Part shown: one piece after another, positions 55 through 33,049 of the stretch
Numbering within the stretch: position 1 is the stretch's first letter
Layout: each line of letters starts with the position of its first letter
Source: Kipferlia bialata
Taxonomy: Eukaryota
NCBI GenBank assembly: GCA_003568945.1
Contig: BDIP01000080.1
Coordinates: forward strand, 1-33,132
Length of the DNA stretch: 33,132 nt
Direction: 5' to 3'
Translations under genes and position numbers: made by a program
The notes under the pieces: model-generated
Databases searched by the model: none
What the model was told of the DNA's origin: nothing
What the model saw: only the letters and a program-made list of their open reading frames with translations

Positions 55-149
55 GTTTCTGATCCCCATTGTCATTGTCATTGTCCTGTGGCAGTGGCCC
101 GCCATTGTGTTGACCACAGTGGATCCCAATGACCACCCAGTGGTATGTT

Positions 150-185
<36 letters not shown>

Positions 186-678
186 TTTGACTCCACCACG
201 TCAATGTATGTGGTTTGTATCCATCTCTCTCTTCCCATCTCTCTATGTATATATGTGTATATACATGAGTGTATATCTAACATTGCTATACCCACCCCCA
301 GACCCAGTCCATGCACATCTCTCTCTTTTCTATATTAAATATTCTATATTCATGTTGATATTTGTGATATATAAATATGTATATATATCATATTTGTTCT
401 TGAGCCCCAGGCCCAGTCCATGCCCCTTGTGCCCACATGTGCTGTCTATGATGGCAGTGACGGGCGGTGAGTATTGTATAAGGGCAACTATTCTAATATA
501 TATATGTATATCTATAGGTAACATCTGGTATCTGTCTATGTACCTCCCTCCAGTGTATTTGCATACCCTTCATGCCATTTCTACATATGTGTATAATTGT
601 ATTTGACTGTATGTGTTTGTACCTTGACCACTGGAGGTGTACGGCGATCTCTGTAGGGTCTCTATATCCCTTTGCTGC

Positions 679-714
<36 letters not shown>

Positions 715-770
715 TCTCTAACCCCCTAGGTATGGCCCAGGTGTCCCCCAGCCTGACTCGCGGTGTCACA

Positions 771-808
<38 letters not shown>

Positions 809-1466
809 TGTACCATAATATTCATGTATATACACTAACACAGCTATGGCCCTGGTGTCCCCCAGCCTGACACTGAGTGTGTGTCTCTCCCTCTGTCTCT
901 ATATGTACCATAATATATATGTGTATATATACTAGCACAGCTATGGCCCGGGTGTCCCCCAGCCTGACACTGAGTGTGTGTGTCTCTCTCTCTCTATATA
1001 TATACCCTAATATATATGTTCACATATACTGACCCAGGTATGGCCCGGGTGTCCCCCAGCCTGACACTGAGTGTGTGTCTCTGGCCTTTGCCCCCGGTAA
1101 CAACATGGCTGTCAACAGAACTATGGACGCTTTAGTAGGTACCACATATTTTATTGTTTGTTATCCTCAATTCATACATGTATACATATATATATATATA
1201 CAAGTTGGACAATCAACAGGACCATGGACGCACTCGTGGGTACGTCATGTTGGATAGTGGTTGTTGATGTATATGTGATATGTATGAGTATATATGCATG
1301 GCTGTCAACCGGACAATGGACGCATTAGTAGGTACGTACTGTTATGATTATACATGTATATGTATATGTATGTGTATATGGCTGTAAACTGAACCATGGA
1401 CGCACTGGTCGTTACGGACAGCGTAGTGTATAGAGTGTACCGACTTCGACATTATCCCCATTGTAT

Positions 1467-1506
<40 letters not shown>

Positions 1507-4500
1507 CCCAGCTGACTTTGGGTGGGAGGGTGAGACTGTCATATACTTACCATTGTCTCTCCATACAATTATCTTTGAGATACGTGCCTCATTACCCTAA
1601 CTCCCCAGCTGAGTTTGGGTGGGAGGATGAGTCCATCATGGTCTTTGACTCTGGCACTGCTCTGAACAACTACGCCAACAGCAACCCAGGCGTCATATGG
1701 CTAGGTGGGGTCTTTACACATACTCATCATCTATTTTACCTATGTCATATATGTAGTAGTGATAGTAGTAACACTATGTCTGTATATTGTTTTATCTGTT
1801 TGTAGTATTGTATACATACCCGCTCTATTATGTATGCCGTTCATAGTATACACACCTCACCCCAGGTGTCTCCTTTGCCGGTGTGACTGACACTGAGACC
1901 CTCCCTGCCAACATAGACTACACCATACACTACAACCAGACCATTCTAGGTATGAGCATAGAGTCTGCATTCATGAATCTCGCTATATATATACTTAATA
2001 TCTGTTCCTACCCCCATACAATGACTACCTGTACATGACATCTTGTACATTTATAGTTATATATATAAATATATATAGTATTCATATCTACTCTGACCCC
2101 AGACAATGCCTACCTGTACATGACATCTTGTACATTTATAGTTATATATATATATATTGTATACTATATCTACTCTGACCCCAGACAATGCCTACCTGTA
2201 CATGACCGATGGACTGGACCCCCTGGCAGACGAGTATGGCAAGGTGTATGACTCAATTACATNNNNNNNNNNNNNNNNNNNNNNNNNNNNNNNNNNNNNN
2301 NNNNNNNNNNNNNNNNNNNNNNNNNNNNNNNNNNNNNNNNNNNNNNNNNNNNNNNNNNNNNTATATATATATATGACAGATGGACTGGACCCCCTGGCAG
2401 ACGAGTATGGCAAGGTATATGATATATATATGCATACTATATATAGATAATGTTTGTATATAGTAGTTGCCTTGTCTGGCTTCACCCTCTATGCCCAGCA
2501 TGATCTATATCCCTCTCTCTATATTTATATATATATTTATATATTAACACCCCAGGTTGCCTGGTCCGGCTTCACCCTCTATGCCCAGCATGCTGTGGAG
2601 AAGGCAGTCATATACGAGCAGACAGGGACAACATTTGACCCACTGGTAAGTGTATAGTCACACATACCCGTATATAGGTGTGTATATGAGTACATATAGA
2701 GTGTGTTACTATAATAGTTACCGCAATCGGAGGTATTATTAGACATGGATATCATTTGACCCACTTGTACGTATAAGTTTGTAATTTGATGTGTGTTGGT
2801 TCTATATATATCTGACTCGTATAAGTAGTAATTATTGGGTTCATACTCACTGTTCCTTCTCACACTAGGTCAAGGGATACCCCTCGAGAAGTCTAGCTGA
2901 TGAGTTCATGCTGCCAGGTATGGGATATAGCAGTAACATATATAAACACTATATACATATTGTGTGTATAATCTACTCTACTATACAGTGCTTGAGTTCA
3001 TGCTGCCAGGTGTGGGATGCTATGATATATGTATACATATACCATACTATGTATGTGTTGTAAGCAAACAGTATACCTGATGAGTTCATGCTGTCAGGTA
3101 GCGGATTACTATTACTATGTTGTAAGATATATACTGTGTATATGATGTCTCTAGGTATACAGTGCTTGAGTCCCTGCTGCCAGGTAGGGGATTGTGTAGA
3201 GCATTCAATACCGATAGTGTATTCTGCAATCCGTGAAATCGTAGTCAGTGTCGTCGTGCTACCAGATATGAGTGCAAGCAGAATACTGTAATTGTGTATG
3301 ATTCATTCTACATTTGAATGTCACTACATTCCTCCCCCACCCCCAGACCCCATGACCAGTGCCGTCCTGATATCAATGCTGCTGTCATATCAGGTAACTC
3401 GATGGTGATTCATGTATGTGCCTCTATTGCTTGCTCAGCACTGTGCATATACATTAGTGTGTGTGGTATACATGCTCCTGTCATATCAGGTGTCGTGACT
3501 CTCATCCACCTGTGTTACTTGGTACTTCTTGCTAATTCACTGTACATGCACACACATACATATCTCACTCCAGATATTCATGGTTGCCCAAGGTGCTGTG
3601 GTTGAGAAGAAACAAGGGAAACTGGAGGCTCTGAGAGTAATGGGAGTGAGGTATGGTCTCTATCTCGCTTACACAGAAATATGTATACTCTTCCTATATG
3701 GGAGTGATGTATATATATATATATGCTCTTCTGCTGACTGAACTGGCCCTCTCTTTTTTTGTCTCTCGCTCTCTCTCTCTCTCTCTCAATATATATATTT
3801 GTATATTATATGTATACTCTACTACGCTCTACTTTTACCCCAGAGACCCCCTGTACTGGCTGAGTTGGGCCCTCGTCCAGATGTTCATCTTCACCCTCAC
3901 TCTGATACCCTTCCTCCTGTTGCTGCACTTGATACCGGACTGTGACATCTTTGGATACGTGGATGTGGGTGAGTATATGTATAGCATATATAGTGTATAT
4001 AGTATGTATATATATATATGTGTTATAGTATATACCTGACTGTGACATATTTGGATACGTGGATGTGGGTGAGTGGGTGTGCTATACCTGTATACAGTGT
4101 GTGTACGATATTTGTATGAATCAGAATCAAGATGAGAGCTATTTCTTTCCATAATCCCATCTGCACCCCATCTACAGGTGTCACCTTCACCCTATTCTTC
4201 ATAATCGAGTATTTGTCAGTCTACATAATACCAGTAAATGTACTATATATATATATACATATTGTTACCCCTATATGTATGTCTTCCCGTTCTATCCTAC
4301 ACCCACTTCAGGCGTCACCTTCACCCTGTTCTTCATATTCGGCCTGGCAGCAACGTCCCTGGGACTGTTCGTGGGTATGCCGGTTAAGAGATATAGCGTA
4401 TATATACACATAGACAGCAACGTCCTTGAGACTGTTTGTGGGTAAGTATGTTGCGATGGTGATTAAATTGTCATCTCTGTTTCACGTATGTTCACATTTG

Positions 4501-6485
4501 AATTCATACTGATTCTGACCCCATGCTGTGTAACGACTGGCATCAATAATCAGTATATATATTATTATGTATTTGATCACGTTTATATTTATATATCTCT
4601 ATCCCTTCTGACCCCATGCTGTGTGACGACTGGCATCATCGGGGCCATGATCATGTGTCTGCTGATCACAATCACAGGTAGGGACTGGGGTTCAAGACTA
4701 CAATATATATCAGTATCTATATATGTACTCATGTACAGTATTCTGGATGTTGATCTAGCAGTGATAGGTAACTGCTTTCCACTGATACTCTCTATCCTTT
4801 GTCTCCATATTGTGTCTGAGTACTATTGTCACTCCTCTGTAACCCCCCACGTGATCGTACTCTATTTGCATATATATATATAGTTGTATCCATGTGACTC
4901 TCATGCCCCATGTTTGGCCAGATAATCTGTCTCTCTCTGTATATATATATATATATATATATATCCTAACCCTCAGGCATTCTGTGCCCCATGTTCGGCC
5001 AGATTGATGCCGATCTCATCTTCTACGATCCATCCTTCATACCCGTCGTGCTGCAAGTCATCCTGTTCAACATATTCCCGTTCATCCCACTGGCAGTATC
5101 ATTGGGGTACGTTAATAGTAATATAAGTATAGAGAGAGAGATGTGTATGCATGTAGTATCATCCTGTTCAACATATTCCCATTCATCCCGCTGGCCCTCT
5201 CACTAGGGTTCGTGGATACATTTTACATTGTGTTGCCACTCTCTCTCTCCCTCTCTCTACACCCCCTCTTCACCCCAGGGCCATGTACATCGTTGTGTTC
5301 CCCAGTGTCACTATCGACATGAACACATACGAGACAATCATTGTGCCACCTAGCGAGAGGTATTCATCCCACATTCTATGATAGTATTGCTGTATTTAGT
5401 ATCAGTATTTAGGCAAATACATATACAAAGTGTTTCACTGTACTGTGAACACATACGAGACAATCATGGTACCACCGAAGTGTATATACGTATGTATATA
5501 CTCATGTCAGGTTCACCTTTGCCATGCTGTTTGGGTCTGACCTCTATCAGTACGAGGGCATGGCCTGCATGGGGGGAGGTATGTATTCATGGCCGCGATA
5601 TATATATATATATATATATGATTGTATCTTTACTGTCACCCTCCCCCCCAGGCTGTTCCTATGACACCCCCCCTGTGGCCATTGCCCTGGTCAACTTGAT
5701 AGTCAGTGCGGTGCTGTGGCTGCTACTCACTTGGATAGTAGGTATTATATATAATAGATATACATATATATGACGTGGATAGTAGGTATTATACATAGTA
5801 GATATACATATATATGACGTGGATAGTAGGTATCTCCTATATTGCATATATGTAGTAATTGTAGTAGATACTTGTCAGTGCGGTGCTGTGGCTGCTGTTG
5901 ACTTGGATAGTAGGTATCTCCTATGCCATTCATTCATTGTTTTGAATACAGTGATTATCTCAAATATTGTAGAATCAATTTCCAATGTATAAATGTGTAT
6001 TGTATAAGCCGTACGTCTCTGTTTGTAGTATCAGTGTCACTATCACTATATACATTCCCCCACCCCAGGTGAGTGGATGAGCAAGAACGGCAGTATCAGT
6101 ATGAGTATGTGTCAGAATGTGTATATATCTATGTATATATATATGTGTCTATATATCTAACCATAGGGGAGTGGATGGCCAAGAACGGCAGCCCGGGTCG
6201 CAACCCCCTGCAGCTACTCCACAGGTAATGGTACATATAGATGTTGTATATTCTAGTGTTACTAGTGACTATATAGATACTCACTGTTCTTCATATGATA
6301 TATAGATATATATATATATAGATATGTCCTTCATTGACAGTGACCAGTATTGTATTCTCATGTCACATGATAGTAGTAGTATCAGTATATTCTCATGCCA
6401 CATGAAAGATACTATCAGGGTATCATCATTCTATTCTCATGCCCCAGGAGCTACTGGTCCGAGAGTGTCCCAGGCCAGAGTCAAG
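55..6485 (+). CDS. ABCA: ABCA exons 1-19: TM1, first exocytoplasmic domain and TMD1
   Basis: Exons: 55-142, 411-466, 1038-1138, 1609-1704, 1866-1949, 2185-2243, 2556-2645, 2869-2917, 3347-3393, 3574-3650, 3844-3968, 4312-4374, 4618-4677 (AT acceptor inferred), 4977-5106, 5279-5359, 5511-5578, 5652-5741, 6167-6224, 6448-6485. Translation includes FLIPIVIVIVLWQW, WSGFTLYAQHAVEKA, VVEKKQGKLEALRVMGVRDPLYWLSW, several hydrophobic helices and RSYW. Confidence 0.85.
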
Positions 6486-9400
6486 GTACGGCATATATAT
6501 ATATATATACATATATACTTACTGTTACATATATTATATACATCCATATAGTATCCCAGGGAGTGTCCCGGGCCAGAGTCAAGGTGCGGTAGAGTATCTG
6601 TATATCCATGTATACATTAATTATACATACATATTTGTTACTGTATTAGTATATACTCCCAGAGTGTCCCAGGCCAGAGTCAGGGTACGGCAGAGTATAT
6701 ACATGTATCCATATGCATCCATTAAATGTCCCATTGCACCCCACTTTCAGACAGGCACAAGTCTATGTCTTTCTTGTTATATATATATATAAAAATATGA
6801 ATATGCATACTCACCACTCCACACAGGCACAAGACTCTCTCTCTTTCTCTATGTATATATATGACTATATGGTATTTACGTATTAGTCTATACTCATCTA
6901 TACTCACCCCTTCAGACAGGCACAAGCGTGTCCCTGTCCCCTACAATGAGGCAACGGGTACAGCTGACAGGCTGGAGCCCTTAGACTCAGGTGCATATAT
7001 ACACCTGTACATAGTTGTCCCATGTGTATATATATGTAACTATAACAAATATATTGTACAGCTTACAGGCTGGATCCCTTGGACTCAGGCATTAATATAA
7101 CTATATACATGTCTAGTTATATGCATATCCATATACACCTAACCCGTAGATGTATGACAGGAGATTGTGTCTTTCCTAGCCATTTTATCATGATAGTACT
7201 CCATGTATATGTTTGTATATACATACACGTCTCACCCCCAGATGCATGACAGGAGATGGTGTCTGTACATTCTCTGTCTCTATGGGACCATATATAAGTG
7301 TATTCCTCCTCTGGACTTAGTACCTGTATATATATATATACATACATACCTAACCCTAGATGTGAGACAGGAGATGGTGTCTGTGCTGACACACCCGTCG
7401 CTGGAGAAGGCAGTGGTGAGTGTATGTATGCATATATCCGATTGTATACCATACATTGTGGAAATATACGTTTTTAGTGTGTATATATAGACATCCATCG
7501 CTGGAGAAGGCAGTGGTGAGTGCATGTATGTAAAAATATATATATTCAGATAGGTATGTATAGGTAGTTCGGCGATGAATACGACAGCGTTAGTATTGTA
7601 TGGTAAAAGCATTTATACTTGTATTTCTGGTTGGATTCTCAATTCGTCTGACCCGTGTCCTTCATTTTCACTCTAGGTTGTTGCCCACTCTCTGGACAAG
7701 ACCTTCAGGACACGGGGCAAGTCATATAACAAGGCGGTGGACGGAATCACGCTCAGGTATATATATTTATATATATGTATATATATGTATATATATATGC
7801 GTGTGTCTTACACGTATGACCATGGTACTCAACAAGTATATGACTTGATCTGATACAACAACAATGGATGGATTTGGCCTCAGGCATGCACTGCATCTTG
7901 CTTCACATAGGAGTGTTTTGTAATATACTCTTAATCCTATATATGAGTGTTCTTTATAGTAGTGCATCTCATCCGAGGATCAAGCAGGGCCAGACCTTCT
8001 GTCTCCTGGGCCACAATGGGGCAGGGAAGAGTACCACCATAGACATGCTCACAGGTACAGTATTTGTCACAGTAGTGTATATAGAGTGTGTATATACATA
8101 AGTATCACAGTTGAGATGCTCACAGGTGTATAGGCAGTGGCATTAATGTATACGTGTTGTATCAATGATATATACAAGTACCACCATAGACATACTCACA
8201 GGCATATATATATAGTGTACAAAGTCCCCCAGTGACATACCCATAGGGTCATTCGTACTTAATGGCCACAGTCGTACCATCCTTAGGCCTAACCCCAGGC
8301 ACCCTGAAGCCCGACAACCCCGCCTCCTCCAGACTGGGCAAGGCCTGGATCAGTGGGCTCTCACTCAACAAGCACCCGCTGCAGATCAGGTACATGCCTA
8401 TATATTTGCTTATGTCTTTACTAATACCCACAGTACTATTTCTTTCAGTCTTACCCTCACAGGCGTACTCTAGGCATCTGTATCTAACGCCCACAATATA
8501 CACACCCTAACACTATATCAACCACCACCATCCATTCATTCCATTTATACCCACCCCCAGGCGCACCCTTGGCATCTGCCCCCAGGGCAACACCACCATA
8601 TGGCCATCCCTGACACCCATGCAGCACATGTGGATAGTGGGCATGCTCAAGGGTGTGTAATATATAGGATATGCACTGGTATATATATGTATATATATTT
8701 ATGGATATGAGTGTGTGCTGTAAACCTATATGTGAATATAAGTATATACCCATGCAGCACATGTGGATAGTGGGCATGCTCAAGGGTGTGTATATATGAT
8801 ATGTATATATCGTATATGTATATGTGAGTGTATTCTGTACGTATATGCAGCACATGTGGATAGTGGGCATGCTCAAGGGTGGGTATATTGGATATATATA
8901 TGTGTGTGTATGTATGTATATATATGTATATATATACACCCATGCAGCACATGTGGATAGTGGGCATGCTCAAGAGTGGGTATATTGGATATATATATAT
9001 GTGTGTGAGATGTATGTTTGTATATGTATATCCATGCAGCACACACACACATATATATATATGTGTGATATGTATGCACTCTCACCCCGGACATACCCAA
9101 GTGTCCAATACACACATATGTATATATATATATATGTGTGTGTGTATATATATATGTATGTATATATATATGTGTGTGTATATGTATGCACTCTCATCCC
9201 CAGGCATCCCCAAGTGCCTTATTCAGAACATGGCCATTGTGTTGTCTTGCCATTATATACTATATGTGTTCTGTATCTACTCTCTATCTACTCTCTATCC
9301 ATCCCCACCCCCAGGCATACCCAAGTGCCTCATTCAGAACATGGCCCTAGAGCTGCTGGGCTATGTTGATCTACTCGATGTCAAGAACAAACCGGCTGGA

Positions 9401-12400
9401 CAGTACGTGACTTGGATGTATCACTTGTAGACATTGTATGTACTAGAGTGACACACATACATCACCCATATACCCACTCTCATGTCAGGACAGTACGTGA
9501 CATGGATATATATCACATAGATATTTCACTCATTGGTAGTGTGTATACTGTCATATGAGGTGGATCTAGGTGGATATATATACCCTCTCTCATGTCAGGT
9601 TCTCGGGTGGTATGCTGCGGCGTCTGTGCATAGCCATGGCATTCACAGGGTGCCCAAGGCTGGTCATACTGGATGAACCATCGACAGGTGTATGAGATAG
9701 ATATAGATAGATGGATAGACATATATATAGATAGATAGATAGATAGATGAACCATCGACAGGTGAGTTTAGATATAGATATATATAGATATATATATATA
9801 TATATAGTTAAGCAGTATGTGCAGGTCATACTGGACGAACCATCGACAGGTGTGTGTAGAAGTATGGATATAGTACAGGTATTCTGATATGGACGAGCCG
9901 TGTAGGAGCGTGGGTACACATGGTGTACCTCAGTATGGCATCACCATTGTATTCATTGATACTATAATATACTGCGACTGATCCTAGGCCTAGACCCCAT
10001 TGCCAGGCACATTGTGTACCCTATATATACATATGTATAATTCTATATGTGTATAGTGTAATTCACTTACTCCAGGCCTAGACCCCATTGCGAGACACAC
10101 TGTGTGGACTCATACTCTATATATATGTGTGTGTGTATATCGTGTGTAGTGAATAGTCTAACCCCAGGCCTAGACCCCATTGCCAGACACACTGTGTGGA
10201 CTCGTACTCTCTGTCACTCTCTCTCTCNNNNNNNNNNNNNNNNNNNNNNNNNNNNNNNNNNNNNNNNNNNNNNNNNNNNNNNNNNNNNNNNNNNNNNNNN
10301 NNNNNATTACTATTTCTAAATCCCAGGCCTCGACCCCATTGCCAGACACACTGTGTGGACAGCAGTGGAGGCCATCACTGGGAAGAGGCAGCAGATGCCG
10401 ACATACGGCAGGAATGGACACCTCAGAAGGTAACGTATCATTTGGCTGATGCCAGTAGTGCAGAGATTAGTACTTATATCTCTTCTGGGATGGTGGACCC
10501 TCCCTCACTATGTACAATATTCATACATTATAATATGTATTGTATACATTATAATATGTAAACATAAAGCCTTACCCTAGGAAGTGGGCTCCCCCACCTG
10601 CTATTACGAAGTAGTACTAGTAGATACTATATACATTCAAATACTATGCATACCATACCCTGACACCTAGGAAGTGGGACCCCCCACTCACTCTGTAGAG
10701 TGTGATCATACCCATATCCTGTATCCATATATACAGTGTATGTATATATATACATATACAGTGTTATCCTTACCTTAGGAAGTGGGCCCCCCCACCTGCT
10801 GTGATGCTGACCAGCCATGACATGCCAGAGGCAGAGAGGCTGGGGGACGTGGTGGCAATCATGAGCAAGGTGGGGATGTATAGTGTGTCCTACTAGTTGT
10901 ATATGTATACTAATTGCTATATATGTATATGTATCTGTGTGGCAATCATGAGCAGGATGGAGACATACATAAATGGAATGTTCTTACATGTATATATGGA
11001 TATGAAGAGATATATAAGGATATGAAGAGAAAGATATGTTTCAGCTATATGTATATCCATCTTACTGAGTGTGGTGGCAATCATGCGCAAGGGATGGTGT
11101 ATCCTTATGGAAATATCCCTTATGTAGCAATAGTGTAGCAATCATTCTGCCTCTTGGAAGTTGTGTTGGCTATTGGCAAGTTGTGGATGCGATACCAGTT
11201 CTTCCACTCTCTCACCCCAGGGTCAGATTGCAGCCCTTGGCACAGTCATGCACCTCAAGGTATGTGTGTGTGTACATATGGAGATACAGTCTGATTCCCT
11301 ATTAATACCCCTGATTCTCTCTGTATGTCAGCTGATACCAGTATTTTCTTACACTCTGTACATATATGTATAGATACACCCACTGACCCCAGGCCAAGTT
11401 TGGGACAGGCTTTGTGATATCAGTTGTGGCAGACGCTGCTAACCACACGTCCAGGATAGCACGGGCTATTAGGAGGTATGTGAGATATATATACATAGAG
11501 TGTAGAAATAGTGTGTACTACTGTATGTCAATACTTCTACCATAGCATAGGATATTTGGAGGTGTATACATATGTATTGTTCATAGTATATATTTGCTGT
11601 ATATCCATACTCTCCCGAGTATAGTATAGCCTCTGCATACATATATCTCACTCAGGTCATGCCGTGATATGGACATTGACTATGTGGACCTCGCACCAGA
11701 GCTAGAAGGTACCACAGTTATATGGTATTGTGATACACAAGGCAGTAGTTTGTATACATACATGAATATGCATATGTATATATATATATCATAGACTATG
11801 TGGACCTGGCACCAGAGCTTGAAGGTATTGGTTGCATCATAACCTACAATACTATTTTCAATGTATCACAGTACAGCACACGCACACACACATACATATA
11901 TTTATATATATATATATATATACATGTCCTTATACCCCAGGTGTCACTTCCGATGCCCAGGAGGAGGAGGGACCGAGACAGTGGGGTGAGGGAGAGGAGG
12001 GAGAGCGAGAGGGAGAGGAGGAGGATGACGAACCTGAGCCAACAGGCAGAGGTATGCATATATGGCAATGTATACTATATATACAGTAGTCCAGGTGTTG
12101 TGGAACCGGCCTATTCTTCTGCTTACCTGATACTGATACTGATACCTCAGGTGGCTTCACTGAGGCCCTCATGGATCTATACGACGACCCAGAGTCTGAG
12201 GTGCGTATGTATACCAATATATATACCATTATATATACACTACACCATTTGTGTCCATTATTTACTCTATTCATTGCCTCATGGATCTATACGACGACCC
12301 AGAGTCGGAGGTGCGTATGTACTACTGTATGTGTATTCTCATTAGTATATTTGACGACTCAGAATCTAAAGGGTGGACAGTGAGTCATTTCGCTCTCTCT

Positions 12401-15166
12401 CTCTCTCTGTCTCTCTCTACATGACACTGACTGACTGAGTGTTTCTCTAGTGACATGAACTCACCCCCTAGGCCCGTGCCAACATTGTGACCCTTCTGGA
12501 CAGAAGTGCCCAGAGCCTCACATACAGTGTCAGCCAGGTAGTTATATATATATATATTACATACTATATATATATATATATATTTGTTGCGTGTTCACTT
12601 TCAGTGTCAGCCAGGTAGTTATAGTTATTAGTAGTTATATATACATATATGTCACTGTATATACTTTAATATGTATGTTGTGTGTTCACATACAGTGTCA
12701 GCCAGGTAGTTATTAGTAGTTATATTATATATACTATATTATGTATGTTGTGTGTTCACATACAGTGTCAGCCAGTTAGTTATTAGTAGTTATATATATA
12801 TAATACAAAATATGTATATATGTATGTATATGTTCACATACAGTGTCAGCCAGGTATAGACTTAGTAATGCATATGTATAACTATTACATAATATGTATA
12901 TATATGTATATATTATGTGTCCCATAAAGTGTTAGCCAGGTAGTTTTATGCCATACAGTTTTGTTTCAGATGTGTGGTGTTCTCCACTTGCATCATGTAA
13001 TGAATGCTCTTGTATTTGATAACGTGTCCTTCTTCATTTCGAGTATTCCATTTGATACACTCTACCATTTAGGAGTATCTGTGTTATATACCATGTCACT
13101 ACTTGTGCATTTTCCCGGACTCACCCCCAGTCCACCGCGACCAAGGTCTCCTCCTCGTATAGTGGAATATTTACATATCCGCCACTCTCTGTATTCCCAT
13201 AGAATTGTTCAACCACTTGCAAGTACTCACCCCCAGTCCACTGAGACCAAGCCTCACAACAGTATACAATGTATATATACTCCATGCATTCCCATTCTCT
13301 ATACTGATACCAGTCCACCGAGACCAAGCTCCCCACCCTCCTGTCCAGACTGGAGGCCAGGCAGGGCAGGGGGTTTGAGTACATAGAGGACATATCATGC
13401 ACACAGGTGTGTTGGAAGTAGTGTATATATACACTATATATACAATATTCAATGAGACATTTCGCGTATCCACTATGTCCCCCTCTGTCACCCGCCCCCT
13501 CACCCCCAGACCAGTCTGGAGGAGGTGTTCATCAATGTGGGCCACAGGTACAGTATGAGCACTATTGTAGTGAATATGTCTGGAATTAGTTACAGTGATA
13601 CTCATACTTACTTACAGATACTGACATTGCGGTGTCGCTATCAGTCTATGTGGTATCACCTGTATATGTATGCATTGTATACTCATGGTATCAGGGCCAT
13701 GGTTGCCTCCCATGCGCAGTGTCTGGCCAACATGCATCTACCTGAGGGCACGGACGAGAGCAGACGCATAGTGCAGCAGGTATATATTTGTATATGTATA
13801 TGTATATCACATGTATATCACACATATCATTTCCCTTTCCTCTCTCTACCTCTCTGCCTAGTCAGACTTGCCGTATGGATCTATATGTGTGTAGTTACTT
13901 ACCCCTTACACTAGCGAGAGGTTCTTGCCTGGGCATACGTGTGTATACGTATATATTTATATATATACATATATGTATGTATAGTAAGATTGTATGTCAA
14001 TATATATATCTAACCCTAGCGAGAGGTGCTAGCCTGGGCAGGCACTGACAGCTCTGAGCAGTGGATTGAGTCCACTCCCCCTCCTTCCCCCTCCCCACAG
14101 ACACAAAGTGCAACAGACAGGTATGTGTATGTATAGGCATATACAGTTGTAGTATATACAATACACTGCACGTCTGACAGATGCTATGCTTGTATATTGT
14201 ATGGTACACAATATTATGGTTGTACGGTCATTACACAGACATCTAGACAGAGTGCCTCAGATCAGGTGTATGTACTCATGTATGTTGTGCTATATCCATT
14301 CATTAATGTCACGTTCCCATCTCTATGTCTTACCCCCAGTTCAGCTTGTATGTATCTATATATATATGGAGTATTCCCTCTATGTCTTACCCCCAGCTTC
14401 AGCTCTGTGTCTGACAAGTATATGTATGAAAGTGTGAATATGTGTATTACATTTGTGTGATAGGATCCAATGTTGTGCTTACCCCCAGCTTCAGCTCTGT
14501 ATCTATATACATATGGAATGTTTCCTCTGTGTCTTACCCCCAGTTTCAGCTCTGTCTCTGACAGCAATGCAACCACCTCGTCTAGTACAGGGGAGATCAC
14601 AACACATGGGAACAAGGAGAGCAGGTGAGGGAGAGATAGAATGTGTGAGAAATGAGAGACGTGATGTGATATTGGTATAGTGATTGTCACTCCCTACCGC
14701 TCATCATAGGAGAGAGAGAAGGAGACGCGAACAAGAGGAGGCAGAGGCAAAGGTATGGGGCTCTCATACATACCTACATCCTAAATGCTATATCTCTCAG
14801 TTCTGATCTTTGAAGAGCCCACTGTACAGACCTAACACTTGTAATGGTAGTGACATGTCTGTGCTTATCTCAGTATTTGATCTTTCTGTAGTGTCTCGCT
14901 ATTTGTTTTGTATTGAGCCGTATGCATGTGTATCTGACCCTCAGATTGATGTGCTCAACCCACCTCTCAAGAGGCCTAGATACGCCAGGGGTCTCTTTGC
15001 CAAGCTGTGGGCGGTGGACAGGTGAATATTATTGTATTTATACATATGTGTACATATGAGTATATATATGATGTATTTATAAGTAATAGGTTTGCATGTA
15101 GTAGCATATACTTACTAGGATACATACTATCATTTGTACGCTGTGGGCTGTGGACAGGTTGTAATA

Positions 15167-15200
<34 letters not shown>

Positions 15201-18178
15201 GTGTATGTGTATTCTTTTATCCTTCTTTCACTCTCTCTCTATATACTATGCCCATCTCTCTCTTACCAATAGGACCCGTTCCTGTGGCCTCATGGGTCTC
15301 TCTACACATAACAGTGTATTATATATAGTGTAATATACGTAGAGTATATGTCTCTTACTCATAATAGGACCCGTTCCTGTGGCCTCATGGGCATCTTCCT
15401 CCTGCCCTTCCTCTGCCTCATGATATCATGGCTGCTGGTGGCACATCTCTTCCCATTCATGGTTGACTTGGTGGATGAGTATGTGGGTAAGGGAGAGACA
15501 TACATATATATGTGTATACAATGTATCGCTTGGTTGACGAGTATGTAGGTAAATATATATTTATATACTATATACAAGTGTAACTAGGCTACCGTGTCTC
15601 TGCATATACTATCAGTTGTGCATCTCAATCATATGCCCCTGACCCCCCAGCTGGCTACATCTATTTATAGTATAAATTTTATACTGGTATGTATTTCCTC
15701 ACCCACCAGGTGGCAAACGTATATTCATTGATATATATACCCCTCACCCCAGCTGGCTACATCGATGAGGCTGAGGCAGCCTGTCAGCTCTGTATGCTCA
15801 GCAACTACGTCCCAGACAACCTGGTTAGTGTGTAGTACTCGCAGTATGAAGTATAGTTGACTGGTCTTACCCACATTCTAAGTCTCTATGTATACATATG
15901 TTGCCTATCCCCAGTGTGCCTATCTGTGCCTGATTACCAGCCCCCAATTGATACATGGTAATATGTATATATATATATATATGTATATGCCAGTGTCTGA
16001 CATTCCAGTACCCCACCGAGCCCTGCCAGGGGTATGACATGCTGGGCAACCCATATGTATGCACACTGCTAGACCAGTACAAGGGTATGTAGTGTGAGAT
16101 ATACGTGTACATATGTGTAGTGTGAGATATGAGTGTACATATCTATGTCTGCACACTGCTAGACCAGTACAAGGGTATGCTTATGAGAGATATACGTGCA
16201 TATATACGTCTGTACACTGCTAGACCAGTACAAGGGTATGACCGTATATATGCTTCTTACACGCAGTGTTCTCTCCCTGTTAGTTTTCCATATATACGGT
16301 CTACAATCATAATCAGTATCCATCTTACAGTGTCTGTACTCTGCTAGACCAGTACAAGGGTATGAGTACATGCTATATAGTTCTAGTTCCAGTTCTAGAC
16401 CAGTGCAAGGGGATGCTTATGAGAGATATGTGAATAGATATATGTATATATCAAGGCTACGAGTATAAGCTTACTTCTAGTACTCTATTCTCTCGATATT
16501 CTCATGTTCAGTTCCGAAACCATACTAATCAGCATATATCTTAGTATATTGAAGAGGTACAGTTCATATCCATCTAACAGTCAGGCAATGTACAGTTCCA
16601 AGAGGCCACAGTGTTTGGTGACCTTTCTCCTAGGTATGGTGATCAGACACTTCTATATGGTTGTAATTATGACACGCGTCTATTGCACATTACATTACAT
16701 GTATTCTAATATCAGCATGAAGCGCTATGCCGTACCCGTGTCCATGACTGTGTTTGATGGGACTAGGTTCCCACTTGACAAGGTAGGGATATCTCCATTG
16801 TGTCACTCTATCCTATTTGTATTCACGGTAGTCTCCGGTCCAAGGAGGAGAGGGCTGTCTTGGTTGTACTGTGTGACTTCTACTCAGTGTATATATATTG
16901 ACTGTCTCACCCCAGCTCTCTGATGTCTCCTCCATGTCCAAGCAGGAGACGTCCATTGACATGTATAGTTATATATGTCTATGCCAATATATACATTCAT
17001 ACTGACCCCAGCTGTCTGATGTCTCCATCATGTCCAAGCAGGAGAGGGCAGAGTATGACCCATGGGTGGAACTGGCACAGCTCGTGGAGGCAGAGGTACA
17101 TATGTAGTGTACTTCATACGTATAATGATTCATCGATTTTGCTTTTGGGAGTATTGGGCACAGCTCGTGGAGGCAGAGGTACAAGGATGTAGTATATGGT
17201 ATATATGTGTGAGTGGATGAATGTATGTATGTGACACTGTGTCTGGCACAGCTGGTAGAGGCAGAGGTAGGAGGATGGCATAATGTTTTCACAATTGTAT
17301 TGTATTATATCGTTTATATAGGTGTATATGTGTGACACTGTGTCTGGTACATATAGTAGAGGTAGAGTTATATGGGTACTGTACAGAAAGTGTATGTATG
17401 ATTATGACATAATGCATGGTGTCTGGCACAGTTAGTAGAGGCAGAGGTATGACGTACGCACTGTGTTGAAATATATTGGAATTTGTTCTTCTGAACAATA
17501 TTGTAGCGTGTCTGACAACTGGTATAGGGTATTCATGTTAGTGAGAGTTGTCTCACGGCCTCTGTCTCTCACCCCAGCGATCCCTCCTCCCTACTGACCT
17601 AGATGGCACCCCTATTGTGGCTGCCCATCATGGGTCCCTGCCCCCAGCAGAGTCCATGGTCATTAAACAGGTATGAATGGATATATATCAGTCATATCGA
17701 ACATGTGTTTCATATATTCAATTATTAGCACTGTAGTCCTTGTATAATGCCTAACGCCAGATTGCCCCCACCTACTCCAACGAGAGAGAGCACGTCGCCA
17801 ATGACCTGGAGTACCTACTGCTACAGGTATGAGGGTGTATATATATGTGTATATATGTTGATATATATGTGTAGGTGATACCCTTGATGTATCTGCTACC
17901 ACAGGTATGGCATGTTTGTAGATAGAGTGCATTGTGATGTATACAGAACAATGATGATTACCACACACTGTCCCTCACCCCAGTCGGAGGTCTCTGACAT
18001 ATATTATACGCATAGTCTCTCACTCTCTCCCTCTCTCTCTCTGTCTCACTCCATAAAATCATATGTATAAACGCATTGTGACTCACCCCAGTCTGAGGTC
18101 TCTGACATATACACAGCGGCTGGGCTGGATGACCCATACCTCCCAGGTATATGATAGTATGCCATACCTCCATATATA

Positions 18179-18222
<44 letters not shown>

Positions 18223-21200
18223 GATTGGAGTATGCGTCATGTCATTATGAGTCATTCAGTGCACCATCCCTCTATGACCCATACCTCACAGGTACAGCAG
18301 TGTTATACGTATTCTGTGTGTTAAGATACTTAGTGTAGAATACATAGTATTGTGAACGCATATGCACATATATACACTGCCAGTATACACAACCATCCCT
18401 CTGCCCCCCAGGTGTCAAGGGCCTAGTGGCCCAGTACACAGCATAGTATGACATACCTACCTACATATGAATATATATATATACTGTGTTCAATTGTCTT
18501 GTATCATATTCACTTATCATCAGGTGTCAAGGGTCTAGTGGCCCAGTACCCAGCTGCCATCGGGGAGAGATACGCCAACAACGTGACATACGACCACTAC
18601 CTGGACACATTCGCAACCATCGTAGGTATCGCCTATCAGATGTCTTTTCATATTATACACACACACATAAATATATGTATATATATAACATATTACAGCA
18701 CATGGTCCTCGACATACGACCACTACCTGGACACATTCGCAACCATCGTAGGTATGGCATCTATCAGATGTATCATCATTACAGTATAATAATGACCACT
18801 GGATGCTATACCGATATGCAGAACCGGCATAGTGTATGTAATTCTTCTCTCACAAACACTATACGTTATAATATCGTGTGGGCCTCTTGTTCAACTCCTC
18901 TGACCCTCTCATGCCCAGGTGTGGATGAGCCCCTCTATCATGATGCATGGACACTTGAGAACTACGTCATGTACCAGTTGAGGTGTGTATATGTATATGT
19001 AGATGTATGTAAATTATAAAGATTGTGCATATGTTACCTGTATAGACACTGTTACTACGTCATATATATAGTATGTGTATAGTATATGTATAGTATGTGT
19101 AGTGTATATAGTCACTCATTAGCAGGTCCCACTACACCCGTGCCTCATCTGATGCAAACTACATGGAGGAGCCGGAGGTAATTGCAACAGTATAATATGG
19201 GTATATAAAAATATATATATTTAATGTAGTATGAATACTTGTAACTACTACATGGAGGAGCCAGGGGTATATAGAGTATATTATATATATATATGTTATG
19301 GTGTGAATACTTAGAAGCAACTACATGGAGGAGCCGGAGGTAATTATTATAGTATAATACATATATGCATTGTGTCAAGATGTATATATGTATATATATT
19401 TACATTGTGTTATGATTACTAGTAACAGCCTCATGGAGGCGCTTAAGGAATGAGGTTTATAGTGTGGACAGTGGTGTTCATGTTCATTTGTACACACTGA
19501 CCCCTAGGCCATCCTCCAGTCTGTTTTCAGTATATGGTATACATAGTATATATAGTATACTAATGTCTGTGTATGAGCACCCTAACCTTCAGGCCATCCT
19601 GCAACCCCTCCGAGATCTCTACTCCCGTGTCCCCTTAATGACCCTGTACCTCAGTGACTCCCCTGACAGTCCTGTCCAGCAGCCCACACTGCAGACATTC
19701 ATGCCACCTATGACAGGTAGAGACTGGACACACATGTATATATACTAAATGTATGCTATATGTATAGACATTGAGTCAACGCTGCAGACATTCATGCCAC
19801 CTATGACAGGTGCATAGCATATATATATGTAGTGATATATATACATATATGTACACCATGTACTCTAATTATATAGTCCACACTCCAGACATTCATGCCA
19901 CCAATGACAGGTATATCATATGTATAGAGTAGATGTATATAGTTATACATAGTGTTGATATATATACTATTTACTCTGTGTATACAGACATGTAGCCAAC
20001 ACTGCAGACATTCATGTCACCAATGACAGGTAGACACTGCTCGCATTATTCTATATCTACATATGGATGTTCTATATATGGCACACCCAGCCTGCTAGGA
20101 GATATATTCTATATAGTGATTGGTATACAGTTCTGACCTCAGGTGTGCGTCCCTACAATGCCCTGCAGCTCAGGATGAGTTGGACCGGGATAGAGGTGTG
20201 TATGTGTCTTGCATCTAAGTAACTGTTCTCTGCATAATGATGTATACTATATACTTCTCTCCCCTGTACCACCTCACCCCCAGGAGGGCACTGCCGAGTC
20301 CTATGTGGCCAAGACATCAGAGACTATCAACGCACCACCCAGCACACCTAGGTACCATCAGATACATGTCCTTACCTACTGACAGTATAAATTTACGTGC
20401 TTCCTTCACTGGCTATACTGTGGAGTTTGTCTGTGTGTCGTCCTCTCTGGCTCTATAATCATGTCTCCTTCTCACCCGACAGAGGGTCGGGTCTCTTCTC
20501 CAACCCCTTCTCTCTGCCTCCCCACGTGTCACTGGTCAATGACATACATGCCAAGGTACAGCGGCAGTTTGTGGTCTATTTGAGATCTTTCTCATAGGTC
20601 ATTTGAGTCTTCTCATATGTGTACGCTCTCTGCTCCGTAATTTACTTCCAGTCTTGTGTATACATATGTATATGTCTGGTCTAACCCCCTAGCTGAGTGG
20701 CGCTGCCCTCCGATGCTATTAGATGACTCTTGATGTGTGTATATATACTAATATACATATCTATAGTAAGAATATTCGCATTCCCGTTGTCTAACCCCTT
20801 AGCTGAGTGGCGCTGCCCTTAGGTCTGCCACGGGGGAGACACGGGACGGGGCAGGTACACATGGATATGTGTTATTGATAGATATATACACGAGATGGGG
20901 CAGGTACTGCAATATCATACAAGTTATTATGTATATATTTCTATAAACAGGATGTTAACCCCAGGCATCACGGCCTCCTTCCAGCCCTTCAAGTACATAT
21001 GTATATATATATATATATATGAGTGCATGTGCAATGCTATATACCCTCTACCCCCAGGCATCACGGCCTCCTTCCAGCCATTTAAGTACACCAGGGACTA
21101 CTCCTTTGCAGTGCTGGTGGAGACCATAGCCCTGTTCACTGCTGTCATCTTTGTGTCCATAGCTGTCTTGAGTCTGCTACCAGTCTTAGCATATCAGCCA

Positions 21201-24200
21201 GGTGGAGACATTATATATGGACATATATATATATATATGTAGTTGTATGCTGCATGTACTTGCATAACAGCCAGGTGGGGTCATGGATATATATGTATAG
21301 ATATGTACATATATGCATGATACACTTGCATACCTTCCTCCAAGAGGAAATGTGCCACTTGAGTGCATGTCTAACCCGCAGTGATGGAGAGAGAGCTGAA
21401 GCTGTTCAGTCTACTACAACTCAAGGGCATGCCTGCATACGTGTACTGGATCACTCTGCTCGGATACGACATGGCCCTGTGTGAGTGCTACATGTATATT
21501 GTTATGTATTTGTATATGTGTATATATGTATATACCCGATTTGTGTAGGTATACCATCAAGAGCTGTGGTTCTGTGATTGGGCATTACTCGGATACGACG
21601 TGGCCCTATGTGAGTGAAGTATTATGTTTATGTGTACCTATGAAGGCATTTGTTAATAGCCACTTGATGACCTTCTCTGACCCAGGCACCTGCATGACAC
21701 TGTTCCCCAATGTATGAACGGATATAGATATATTAATATATGGGTGTATATTAGTCTCTCTATGCTATTCTAGCTATTCTGACTCAGGCACCTGCATGAC
21801 CCTGTTCCTCTATGTCACGGGGCACCTATTCAGCATTGACGCAATCACAAGGTATCGGCATGTATATATATGCTATATATATATACTATATTTACTACAT
21901 ATATAATGGTCATAGACGCAATCACAAGGTATCGGCCTGTATCATATATATATATCACTTTAGTGTATATACCGTTTTGTTATGAATACATATTCGGCCT
22001 GGCTACTATATTGGCCAAGTTTCCTATTTGTGTCTCTCCCTGTCAGCCCAGGGTGTCCTTCCTGGCCAGTGACTCTTTCTGTTGTCATGACACCATACTA
22101 ACCCTCTGACTCTCTCTCTCTCTATACTATCCTTTTTTTCTCCATACTCTTTCCCCAGGATGTCCTTCCTGGCCCTATCTGTCTATCATCTGATATCTGA
22201 TATGAATATACTATATATACATCACCAATCTCATCCCCAGGATGTCCTTCCTGGCCTTGGTAGTTGTCATGACCATCATGTACTTCAACCTGGTCTGCTT
22301 CGCCATGCTGGTATCAGCATTCCTGCCCAACACTAAGGTACCGTGGATTGTAGTATTTAATAGTATGTACCACTGTCCTCCCCAACACTAAGGTTCACAT
22401 GCAGTGCAGTGCATGTTGGTGTGGCTCTTGAAGTATCCCATATCTCTCATCCAGTATAGTAAGTCAATACAGCGTTACACATACTGCTCCATACCCTAAC
22501 TCCCCTAGGTCTCCAGTGTCCTCCTCAATGCCTTCTACAGTTGCACAGTCGTGGTCACCATGATATTCTTCAGTGTCTATGACCCAGTCACCCTGTGGCA
22601 CGCACTCATACCACCCATGGTACGGAGTATACACGTACTACATATATATTTGTGTGTGTCTATATGCAAATATGGTTCACTTCTGTGTCTATCACCATCC
22701 TCTGCCCTCCCTCACCCCCTAGCTCTGCGTGACCCTCATCGGCAAGATGACATTCAGGGGATACAACATTGTGTCTCTGTTTGAGTCTCCCCTGATGCCC
22801 TTGTTGGCCATAGCAATAGGGGTCGGAGGTACTGTAGATGCTGAGTATTCATATATTCATATCACTCCAATGTGAACATTTACACTCGTCTTGTTACTGG
22901 CACCTAGCCATAGTCATCGTCTACAGTGTTATGCAGAGTTGCCCCATGTCTCACCCCCAGTGGTCTATCTGATCCTCGCTGTGTACTTTGATGCAGTCAT
23001 ACCAAAGAAGGTTGGTGCATGACATATATATTGGATATAGTTATATAGATATTTGTGTATATATTTCACTATGTCTTTGAAACCCTTGTTTATATGTATA
23101 TATGAGCACAGTATTTGTATAGTCATGTCCAAGAAGGTGGGGGGATGCCATGTATATATGTATATATAATAATCCATATATGTGTATATATGTATTTGGG
23201 AGAAGGAAATTTGCTCTTGTCGTGTTCTAATATACATCCTATCGTTAACTGGATACTGCATCGTTCAGCAGTGACTGCCAAGTATGTTCATATATACAGC
23301 AATACCCTCACCTCCAGGGCACTCTGGGTGTGAGGCGGTCTGTGTTCTACCCCCTACTGAGTATCATAGACATAGGGACCATGCTGCTAGGGTACATCAT
23401 GTGCTGTGGGGTCAGGTACGATGTGATATGTATTATATATATTTATATATATATATATACATATAGTCTATGAACTATGTATATCCATAATGATGTCTCT
23501 CATGTGCTTAGGTCATTTACATATTGGGTTCATGTATATGAAACTATGTGTATATAGGCACACGTTGAGAATATGTGCTGGTGAGATGGGTAATAAATGG
23601 TGTTCTTGACCTTGCATGGTGGCTGACCCTAGATACCGACCCAGGCATAGGAGGTCTCCTGTCCAGGCGCAGGGTCAGCCAGAGTACATGAAGGAGGCGG
23701 GTGAGGGGACATGTATGTATTTATATAGTTTACATATTTCTATATACATGTATGTATATAGAGACAGAGAGATGTCACATTGGCCTGAGTACATGACCCA
23801 GGCCCCGATCCCTTCATGCATGGTATTAGTGTATATAGATGTAGTTATATATATATATATATATATGTATGTATATATCTACATGTCTCATATCTTCTCA
23901 TCGCCAGGCCCCGATGCCTTCATGCCAGTTGGTGGTATGCCTGATGAGTACTCGGTGATAGCAGCCAGGGAGACATACGAGGTATATATATGTATATATA
24001 TATATGTGTGTGTGTGTGTTCTACCTACATATATACAGTGATAGCAGCCAGGGAGACATACGAGGTGGGAGGGTGTTGTACACTATATACTTTGTACATG
24101 AGTTCTATGGATATTTATCATAACGAAAACATCTCACTACCAATGTACCCACTCCTCTCACCCCCCAGGCGAGTCAGGCTGGGGATGATGTCAGTCCCCC

Positions 24201-25347
24201 CGGCCACCCCAGAGTGGACCAAGGGGAGGGCGAGGCACTGGGTGATACCGACTATGCACAGAGAGAGGGGGAGAGAGAGGCAGAGGCAGAGGCAGGGGTG
24301 GTCAGAAGTGCCCAGCTGGATGGAGGTATATATATGTATATGGGTGTGACACTCCAAATGCGCTACTGCCCCACCCATCAGAGTATAGCATGTACTATCC
24401 ATTGGTGTCTACTCGCCCTACCCTACAGTACTCTAGTCATCTGTTATAGTCTTAGCATCGTATATATGGATATGTGTATACACTTGCTGTGTTCCCTTAC
24501 CATCCAGTCCGAGAGATCCAGCCTGACTCCGACTGTCCCATCGACCAAGGTCACCCAGACACAGAGGGGATGGGAGGGGGAGAGAGAGAGGCAGACGACG
24601 AAGAGACGTCCATTATGCCCACAGTGTTTGCAGTCAGAGGCGGGGAGGTAGTGGTTGACTCTAGTCTTTCTATCCCACTGCACATACACTGAGATCGTCG
24701 GCTAGATGTCTCAACTATTATACCGTATGTTTACTCACCCCCAGAGAGACCACAACACTGTCTGGGACGGAGGGTTCGAGAGGGACGACTTTGCAGGTAT
24801 ATTCATGCATATATATGTGCATATATATATATATGTGTGTGTGTGTATATATACGGCATATGTGCATGAGGAGAGGGAAGACGTTGCAGGTTGGTGTGCA
24901 TATGTACATACCCATATGTACATACCCATATGTACATACCCATTTGTATATACCCATATGTAAGTATTCCGCAGAGACCATATTCTTTATACGACACCGT
25001 CATGTCCCTCACCCTTAGGCCTTGCCGGTATGCACTCCTCCTCTGTGGACAGTGACACCCAGAGCAGTGCCAGGTGTGTGTGTGGTGTATATACATGTTA
25101 ATATGAGCTCATGCATGTAATAGTATAGTATATATACACCCAGAGCAGCAGTGCAGGGTATGGATATACTGTTGGTACATGAATATGAATATGTGATACA
25201 GTATCTGTACCAGACCAGCAGTGCTAGGTGTGTATAGGATACACATATGTATATGAGCTCAGTAATGTATGCACACATATGTTGTTTGCACATATATGTA
25301 TCATATCACCCAGGTCCAACCAGAGTATACATGGATATTGGGATTTA

Positions 25348-25382
<35 letters not shown>

Positions 25383-28300: not shown

Positions 28301-28693
28301 CATCAGGGGCACTGCCTCTGTGTCAGGTGACAATATCATATATAAATATACATATATATACTATATATGTACCCTAACCATCAGGGGCACTGCCTTTGTG
28401 TCTGGTGACAATGTGGCCAGAAGGCCAGCCAAGGTCCAGAAGCACCTGGGCCTGTGTCCCCAGCATGACGTGTGTGTGGTGGTGTATATATACTTACAGG
28501 ATCTATGTCTTTTAGTATCGTACATCAATGGATGTATAGCAGACATTTATATTATATATATATATATACATATATCTATTAACCATTCCCCTCTTCTCAC
28601 CCCAGCTACTTCCCCTCCCTCACTGTCCGGCAGCACTTCTCCCTGTTCTGCAGAATCAGAGGGGTCCAGAGGAAGATGGTGTGTAATACTTAC

Positions 28694-28733
<40 letters not shown>

Positions 28734-31700: not shown

Positions 31701-32279
31701 CAATGTGGTCACTAGTGCAGTGCAGGAGACATCGGCAGGTGGGGATATATCCAGATACATATGTATACATATAATCACATACATATATATATATATATGT
31801 ATATGTGTGTGTATGGCCATATAGTATGCTGAGGAGTAGTGTAGGAGACATCGGCAGGTGGTACATTTAGGAGTCGGATATACGTTTGTATCTACCATTG
31901 AGACCGCTCAGTATATCATTGGTATATTTATATAGATCTCCATGCACCCTATCTTCCTAGCCCTGACCCCAGGCACCAATGAGGAGTCTGACGTGTCAGT
32001 ACCCGAGTGGGACAGAATGAGGAGAGGGAGGTATGACATAGTTATATAGATATAGTGTGTATGATAGACAAATATATGCATGCATAGTGGGACAGGATGA
32101 GGAGGGGCACATCGATATTATTATAATATCATATCATATATAGAGTTATATGTTGTGGTACTATGACCCATCGTCCCTTGACCTACACATTCCCAGTACA
32201 GTAGTATTCAGTATGCATATCTGTCTACATCCCCTTACCATTGTATGATCCCTTGTCCCCTGAGGTATATATATATATT

Positions 32280-32310
<31 letters not shown>

Positions 32311-32934: not shown

Positions 32935-33016
32935 ATATGGGCCGCATCCACATCCCCCTCCCTGCCTCGTTCAACGTGGCAGCACACCTCAGAATGGCAT
33001 GCATGATACACACATG
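32935..33016 (+). CDS. Probable exon of a downstream gene, product unknown
   Basis: Typical acceptor CTGACTCCAG (ends 32934), GC-rich 82 nt and a GTGAGA donor. Open in two frames, e.g. MGRIHIPLPASFNVAAHLRMACMIHT from ATG 32937. No upstream coding exon could be joined. Confidence 0.4.
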
Positions 33017-33049
33017 GTGAGACAGGACATGGCACCGGTGTCTCATCGG

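Follow-up and report, generated by a model that had tools for sequence, protein, structure and literature searches.

Silent differences between exon edges and their intronic copies in an ABCA transporter gene of Kipferlia bialata

The introns of an ABCA transporter gene of Kipferlia bialata hold short copies of the edges of the adjoining exons, hereafter called echoes. At exon 3, these copies spell the same peptide with other codons. How can segments inside introns differ from their exon in a way that respects the protein, and where do they come from? A preliminary description of this DNA had proposed that the differences arose under protein constraint, and that the echoes might be captured ends of diverged alleles or paralogs, displaced former exon ends, or templates still in use for gene conversion or unusual splicing. 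We addressed these proposals in the window, i.e., the whole stretch of DNA analyzed (33,132 nucleotides; contig BDIP01000080.1 of assembly GCA_003568945.1).

The host gene and its echo arrays

Because an unconstrained gene predictor took echoes for exons, we curated the gene model by hand and then checked it against two proteins, P0003 and P0001. The model has 95 exons (median length 76 nt) and a 2489-aa open frame, 5'-partial, with a single terminal stop. The public K. bialata ABCA model, P0003, is identical to it at 2469 of 2469 aligned residues and differs in lacking exon 13 and in carrying 12 additional residues. Pfam ABC_tran was found in 2 of the 7 exon pieces searched, and the best solved-structure matches of the exon pieces were human ABCA3/7/1/4. 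These results agree with what is expected of an ABCA transporter, namely two ABC domains of ABCA-like sequence and about 2400 aa. A search with exon 4 led to P0001, named K. bialata ABCA in its record, and a search with P0001 led to P0003. P0001 is a collinear paralog with 75% amino-acid identity to the curated model. These were the only two K. bialata ABCA proteins found in the range searched (1323–4211 aa); P0002 was also among the protein matches (E 2e-5, 42% identity).

To detect echoes, exon edges were aligned locally with the introns next to them, and wrong introns served as controls. Of the 94 introns, 64 contain anchored echoes, which number 132 in total (83 on the donor and 49 on the acceptor side), against a wrong-intron null of 0.67 per replicate. 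Each unit is an exon edge with its splice site, repeated in the same orientation inside the intron. It comprises about 25 nt of exon edge (aligned median 25 nt) and about 65–66 nt of intron, and successive units lie a median of 93 nt apart. Donor units occupy the 5' side of introns and acceptor units the 3' side, donor echoes standing ahead of acceptor echoes in 21/21 introns that hold both. Intron length follows 137 + 90 x echoes (r = 0.91), and echo units make up about half of all intron bases in the gene. They lengthen existing introns; no new intron was created.

Some units are plain same-chromosome duplicates, and 2 of 66 echo pairs are near-identical on the intron side. As the assembly rests on short reads, identical young copies would be collapsed in it. 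Both N gaps fall inside echo arrays. Beside the first of them, at 2202–2361, a joint in a contig of the sequence set X1 goes back 59 nt at a depth of 956 (about twice normal), hinting at collapsed, recent identical copies.

The codons of the exon 3 echoes (Table 1) read exactly as first quoted, including the TGA in the third echo. The exon itself ends (1114–1140) with the codons AAC, AGA, ACT, ATG, GAC, GCT, TTA and GTA and a single G before the GT. In donor echo 1 (1215–1241), 5 of 8 codons are changed, all synonymously (AGG, ACC, GCA, CTC, GTG); just upstream it reads W-T-I against M-A-V in the exon, which may mark the edge of the copy. Donor echo 2 (1307–1333) has 3 changed codons, again all synonymous (CGG, ACA, GCA). 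Donor echo 3 (1387–1411) carries 5 changes, of which 4 are synonymous and the other is AGA to TGA, and its GT is lost (G/TT). Synonymous changes are also present in the middle acceptor echo of exon 3, where they include the split Arg codon. This family is among the most diverged of the echo families and is no outlier in kind.

Table 1. Positions of the host gene, exon 3 and the echoes around it
Feature	Position	Strand	Basis
ABCA transporter gene, 95 exons, 132 echoes in 64/94 introns	55..32394	+	model; P0003; ABC_tran/ABCA matches
Outermost exon 3 acceptor echo, with its own branch point and YAG	728..766	+	alignment
Middle exon 3 acceptor echo, with its own branch point and CAG	842..888	+	alignment
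Acceptor echo of exon 3 (innermost)	939..985	+	alignment
Exon 3, ends ...NMAVNRTMDALV, phase-1 donor GT at 1139	1038..1138	+	model; NRTMDAL once in P0003
Donor echo 1 of exon 3, WTI-NRTMDALV G/GT, five synonymous codon changes	1206..1241	+	inside X1 record 5
Donor echo 2 of exon 3, MAVNRTMDALV G/GT, three synonymous changes	1297..1333	+	inside X1 record 5
Donor echo 3 (outermost) of exon 3, synonymous changes and AGA>TGA, GT lost	1378..1413	+	alignment
Exon 4 acceptor echo, sharing the intron of the three exon 3 donor echoes and lying downstream of them	1510..1542	+	alignment

The preliminary description had also allowed that different haplotypes were wrongly concatenated by the assembler. For exon 3 with echoes 1 and 2, X1 record 5 speaks against this: it spans 1053–1340 with no other letter, at a depth of 410 vs 318–456 for neighboring long pieces. 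Echo 3 is bridged by no X1 contig among those listed, which would favor an artefact. An artefact would also suit a unit size close to short-read length, and X1 may be the source sample of the window rather than an independent one, so that its contigs attest the junctions in reads without implying recurrence elsewhere. We nevertheless give an assembly artefact next to no credence, as separately built contigs run unbroken across exon and echoes at normal depth (194–671 and 1513–2041 in addition to 1053–1340), X1 holds 0.93 of the sampled words from 2400–10200, and a join from intron to mid-exon exists in no normal allele. A degenerate exon 3 pattern had 0 matches in metagenome contigs, and single-exon word searches returned no match.

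Synonymous bias and its null

Differences between echo and exon were counted in 128 ungapped echoes, excluding 4 gapped and 14 unanchored matches and trimming 6 distal bases. Over 2442 bases we counted 121 synonymous, 79 missense and 7 stop differences, corresponding to a dN/dS of 0.21–0.27. When each distinct change was counted once in its family (84 families), the numbers were 106 vs 85 and the dN/dS 0.28, with a family bootstrap range of 0.20–0.39 and a bootstrap P(dN/dS ≥0.5) of 0.0002. The value near 1 originally set as the expectation for a dead copy turned out to be too lax. Because a live exon keeps gaining silent changes, a dead copy beside it should give about 0.5, and the pooled and family values are below both. 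Nor were the exon 3 examples selected outliers, since dN/dS is 0.22–0.29 without them. Echo–echo pairs, which are not independent of each other, gave 0.35 (54 vs 59). Changes private to one echo (30 synonymous vs 35 not) gave 0.31–0.41, a range not distinctly under 0.5 when taken by itself. The domains diverge evenly, and the echoes show no overdispersion.

The bias follows the genetic code. Third-position transversions number 52/841 when synonymous vs 13/789 when not (p = 2e-6), and first-position transitions 5/55 when synonymous vs 17/765 when not. Both enrichments support the proposal that the differences arose under protein constraint. In the other two forward frames dN/dS is 1.44 and 1.83, and the synonymous bias is absent there. 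Compared with their exon, echoes differ at 85/392 four-fold and 67/1602 0-fold sites; given the 0-fold decay observed, about 32 four-fold differences would be expected of a same-chromosome copy, where 85 were seen.

Two other causes of the bias were considered and rejected. Simple 3-base periodicity fails to account for a bias that is codon-aware, and with CpG sites removed, which excludes CpG hypermutation, dN/dS is still 0.27.

Splice signals, decay and present use

Splice signals of the echoes have diverged while working. Echo acceptors are as strong as real ones (medians of 6.3 and 6.4 bits), although 6.8 of 14 positions differ between an echo acceptor and the real one it belongs to; the same amount of change placed at random would bring the score to −3.0. 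A branch-point motif lies upstream of 33/47 echo acceptors and 81/94 real acceptors. The GT is kept in 70/81 donor echoes and the AG in 42/47 acceptor echoes. Identity between echo and exon donors falls from 59/81 to 29/81 between positions +3 and +8, and the intron side is near background beyond about 6–13 nt from the splice site. On that side, 3/128 echoes are near-identical to the authentic sequence and 19/128 exceed the 95th percentile of the null.

Two further explanations were discarded. Old copies refreshed in their exon part only would not keep branch points that are different yet strong. Nested or recursive splicing as the reason for the echoes would leave codons unconstrained, and donor and acceptor echoes are unbalanced.

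To follow decay we also used an independent detection, in which the window was fixed at 18 nt and the query left out the splice dinucleotide; it found 127 echoes against a null of 2. In this set, 0-fold differences are more frequent in the outermost echoes (33/353) than in the inner ones (25/573; p = 0.003), while four-fold differences are near 0.25 in both (20/82 vs 36/134; p = 0.75). The GT or AG is lost in 8/29 outermost vs 5/47 inner echoes (p = 0.07). Echoes without GT/AG show 11.8% 0-fold change vs 5.4% for the others, with equal four-fold change. No age gradient by rank appeared among the local-alignment echoes; found in the fixed-window set only, the gradient thus depends on including degenerate copies. 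The differences resolve into two components: a neutral decay that is linked to age (d0 about 0.04), and a silent offset of 0.17–0.21 that is independent of age. Since replacement decay doubles outwards while four-fold change stays flat, the echoes look dead now and would already have been different at formation.

The suggestion that echoes might still be in use fared less well, and present use is unlikely. Their offsets modulo 3 are unbiased (49/39/40, p = 0.49), the frame is open in 13/128, and stops make up 7 of 86 non-synonymous changes vs 4.4% expected if neutral, beside the age-linked decay. Translation through alternative or unusual splicing might draw on the retained GT and AG, and on P0003, in which one echo is included as a duplicate of 12 aa; the corresponding segment stands once, not twice, in the paralog. 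To substitute for an exon edge, an echo would moreover need splice sites in mid-exon, and none is consistently apparent in the alignments. Over 60–2260, the region covered by the RNA comparison, in which no listed piece lies over exon 3, the sole RNA contig of the gene itself (depth 2.3; from a run guessed to be RNA) joins exon 1 to the last exon 2 acceptor, past the echo at 300–314. P0003 uses authentic splice sites except once, beside an N gap. We therefore regard translation of the echoes as very improbable. Indirect use can be conceived as well. Silent gene-conversion cassettes belong to antigenic variation, with donor copies kept intact, and echoes could stay protein-compatible by indirect selection if they were frequently brought into the gene by deletion or conversion. 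This would explain why both codons and splice consensus are retained, but frequent exchange would homogenize the units, whose intron sides are unalignable, and the seven stops and the outward decay indicate copies that are not kept intact. No skip from exon to echo occurs among the joints listed (15 of 16), in contigs that drop rare forms. Cassettes are in our opinion improbable.

Origin of the echoes

Could the copies come from elsewhere in the genome? At 130 echo-covered codons where the exon and P0001 differ, the echo agrees with the exon 120 times, with the paralog 4 times and with neither 6 times. All three exon 3 donor echoes read L-V like the exon, where P0001 reads V-I. Capture from paralogous ABCA genes gains something from the existence of a collinear paralog and from 4/10 echo changes at diagnostic codons that match it, but linker echoes are as close to their exons as echoes elsewhere, while the paralog is <30% identical in several linker exons, and the protein range searched holds P0001 and P0003 only. 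We hold such capture to be highly improbable. Among the origins initially listed, diverged alleles and displaced former exon ends fit the data, and the paralog option is rejected for P0001. Plain duplication within one chromosome and subsequent neutral decay, without any exchange between alleles, is a known process that accounts for placement, order and outward decay. It predicts a dN/dS of at least 0.5, the lower four-fold count given above, alignable intron sides and decayed splice signals; it is contradicted unless silent sites of exons change about 5x faster than dead intronic copies, and we find it extremely hard to believe. A combined scheme is unlikely rather than far-fetched: units would arise as same-chromosome tandem duplications, and later on, ordinary recombination in a highly diverse population would replace the edge of the exon and the first bases of the intron with those of another allele. 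Echoes would then still record other alleles, with the difference gained after birth. This scheme predicts the same codon-aware offset and outward ageing, and clear same-chromosome duplicates exist, as does the X1 joint that goes back 59 nt at about twice the depth. However, it needs exchange within 60–90 nt in mostly unalignable introns, and it must be fast, as inner echoes already carry the full offset (36/134 four-fold sites).

With P0001 ruled out as the source, other working alleles of the same gene remain. A second allele was not encountered in the two runs compared, which represent at most one sample. Among the X1 contigs listed over 60–2260, from which variants are dropped, there was no 90–95% identical copy of any exon; these contigs comprised the gene's own sequence and a copy about 84% identical, presumably P0001. 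A transcript-like entry, record 10 of the set X2, is also about 84% identical (63–143, 1607–1702, 1864–1941 and 2183–2245) and shares the exon 4–5 junction; it too is presumably P0001.

We propose, with about even confidence for and against, that echoes are dead copies of exon edges and splice sites from other working alleles, made by slipped or aborted recombination between diverged homologues. Alleles with a silent divergence of about 0.2 and unalignable, microsatellite-rich introns would pair only at short conserved exons. Exchange or repair synthesis near an exon edge would copy the partner's edge, its splice site and about 65 nt of intron, and the copied segment would rejoin out of register. 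Only a product spanning the splice site would be harmless, because the first donor and the last acceptor would still be used. A new unit would enter next to the exon and push older units outwards, where they would decay neutrally (about 4–9% at replacement sites). The initial silent offset (about 0.17–0.21 per four-fold site) would then represent allelic diversity, at the top of its known range. A Dmc1 that tolerates mismatches, acting where NHEJ and Rad51A are missing, would be a plausible driver.

Parts of this scheme have precedents, in the accessible sections of the papers cited. Schizophyllum commune has a synonymous diversity of 0.20 and crossovers favoring exons (PMC4576712, PMC4209137), so that silent diversity near 0.2 and exchange in conserved exons, which the mechanism requires, occur together there; its crossovers are in register, whereas the products proposed for Kipferlia are out of register and stacked in introns. 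In flies, SDSA may end in end joining (PMC2895639), and such aborted SDSA likewise combines partial homologous copying with non-homologous rejoining and leaves a templated insertion, but it was shown at induced breaks in flies, not in any fornicate nor gene-wide. Fornicates are described as being without NHEJ and Rad51A and as having two Dmc1 paralogs (PMC8516963), and Dmc1 tolerates mismatches (PMC7809202, PMC11514202).

Against the allelic reading, intron sides have diverged further than expected from a silent diversity of 0.2 alone, which requires fast microsatellite-driven intron turnover as an additional assumption, and the tight unit size (median 93 nt) is unaccounted for. The analysis covers one gene in one strain. 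As a tentative and rather doubtful extension, much of the intron sequence of Kipferlia would stem from a recurrent recombination slip of limited size, driven by mismatch-tolerant Dmc1 where NHEJ and Rad51A are lacking, that stacks diverged-allele junctions by age.

Repeats that span a splice junction are already known. According to the available text on intron 7 (IVS7) of human F7, its 37-bp minisatellite holds silent 5' pseudo-sites and the first donor is used (PMC1557585). The Kipferlia unit likewise spans the exon–intron border and leaves extra donor sites, but where F7 has identical pseudo-sites in one intron, Kipferlia has heterogeneous units on donor and acceptor sides in 64/94 introns, with unalignable intron parts and codon-aware divergence. 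The whole-length near-identity that characterizes a minisatellite was found in only 3/128 echo–exon and 2/66 echo–echo pairs. Internal or tandem genomic duplication is another described source of intron sequence (PMC3265369, PMC2809761, portions of text), and there too short local copies of gene sequence end up spliced out. In the cases covered by those portions, new introns arise from coding sequence, and rarely, while in Kipferlia each unit adds about 90 nt to an intron already present, and the copies, unlike those of tandem duplication, would not have been identical to their neighbor at the start. The accessible part of the K. bialata genome paper (PMC5874029) reports intron numbers and does not contain the word stem "duplicat"; among the titles and openings of abstracts listed in searches of the open-access literature, none described such echoes in Kipferlia. 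What is new is the density of the echoes, their occurrence on both sides, the heterogeneity of units whose splice signals were tuned independently, and the measurement of a silent offset beyond the reach of a same-chromosome copy.

The arrays give intron growth a concrete route, at about 90 nt per event and amounting to about half of the intron bases in this gene. Because full-strength decoy sites are kept, they also offer a natural way to test how a reduced spliceosome chooses the first donor and the last acceptor. If the allelic reading is true, a single genome of a free-living Giardia relative could suffice to infer diversity, recombination and sex. If the slip reading is true, a single assembly would preserve allelic variation in layers across the whole genome, and would testify to cryptic outcrossing in a hyperdiverse fornicate.

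Echoes also mislead gene prediction, as in the public model P0003, which carries one as a 12-residue duplication. P0003 takes the acceptor echo at 10166–10203 as an exon and so reads LDPIARHTVWTR twice in the first ABC domain, where P0001 has one copy; the doubling is likely a prediction error beside an N gap. Exon 13 (4616–4677), omitted by P0003, is preceded by CAT in place of YAG, and its acceptor echo at 4523 likewise has AT. It keeps the frame and aligns to P0001 at 81%, and its intron is likely a non-canonical GT-AT intron. The acceptor of exon 23 (7975–7977) is GAG, not YAG, in the curated model, and the P0003 protein sequence agrees there. Finally, an exon-like segment between CAG and GT at 32935–33019, 3' of the ABCA stop codon, is probably part of the next gene.
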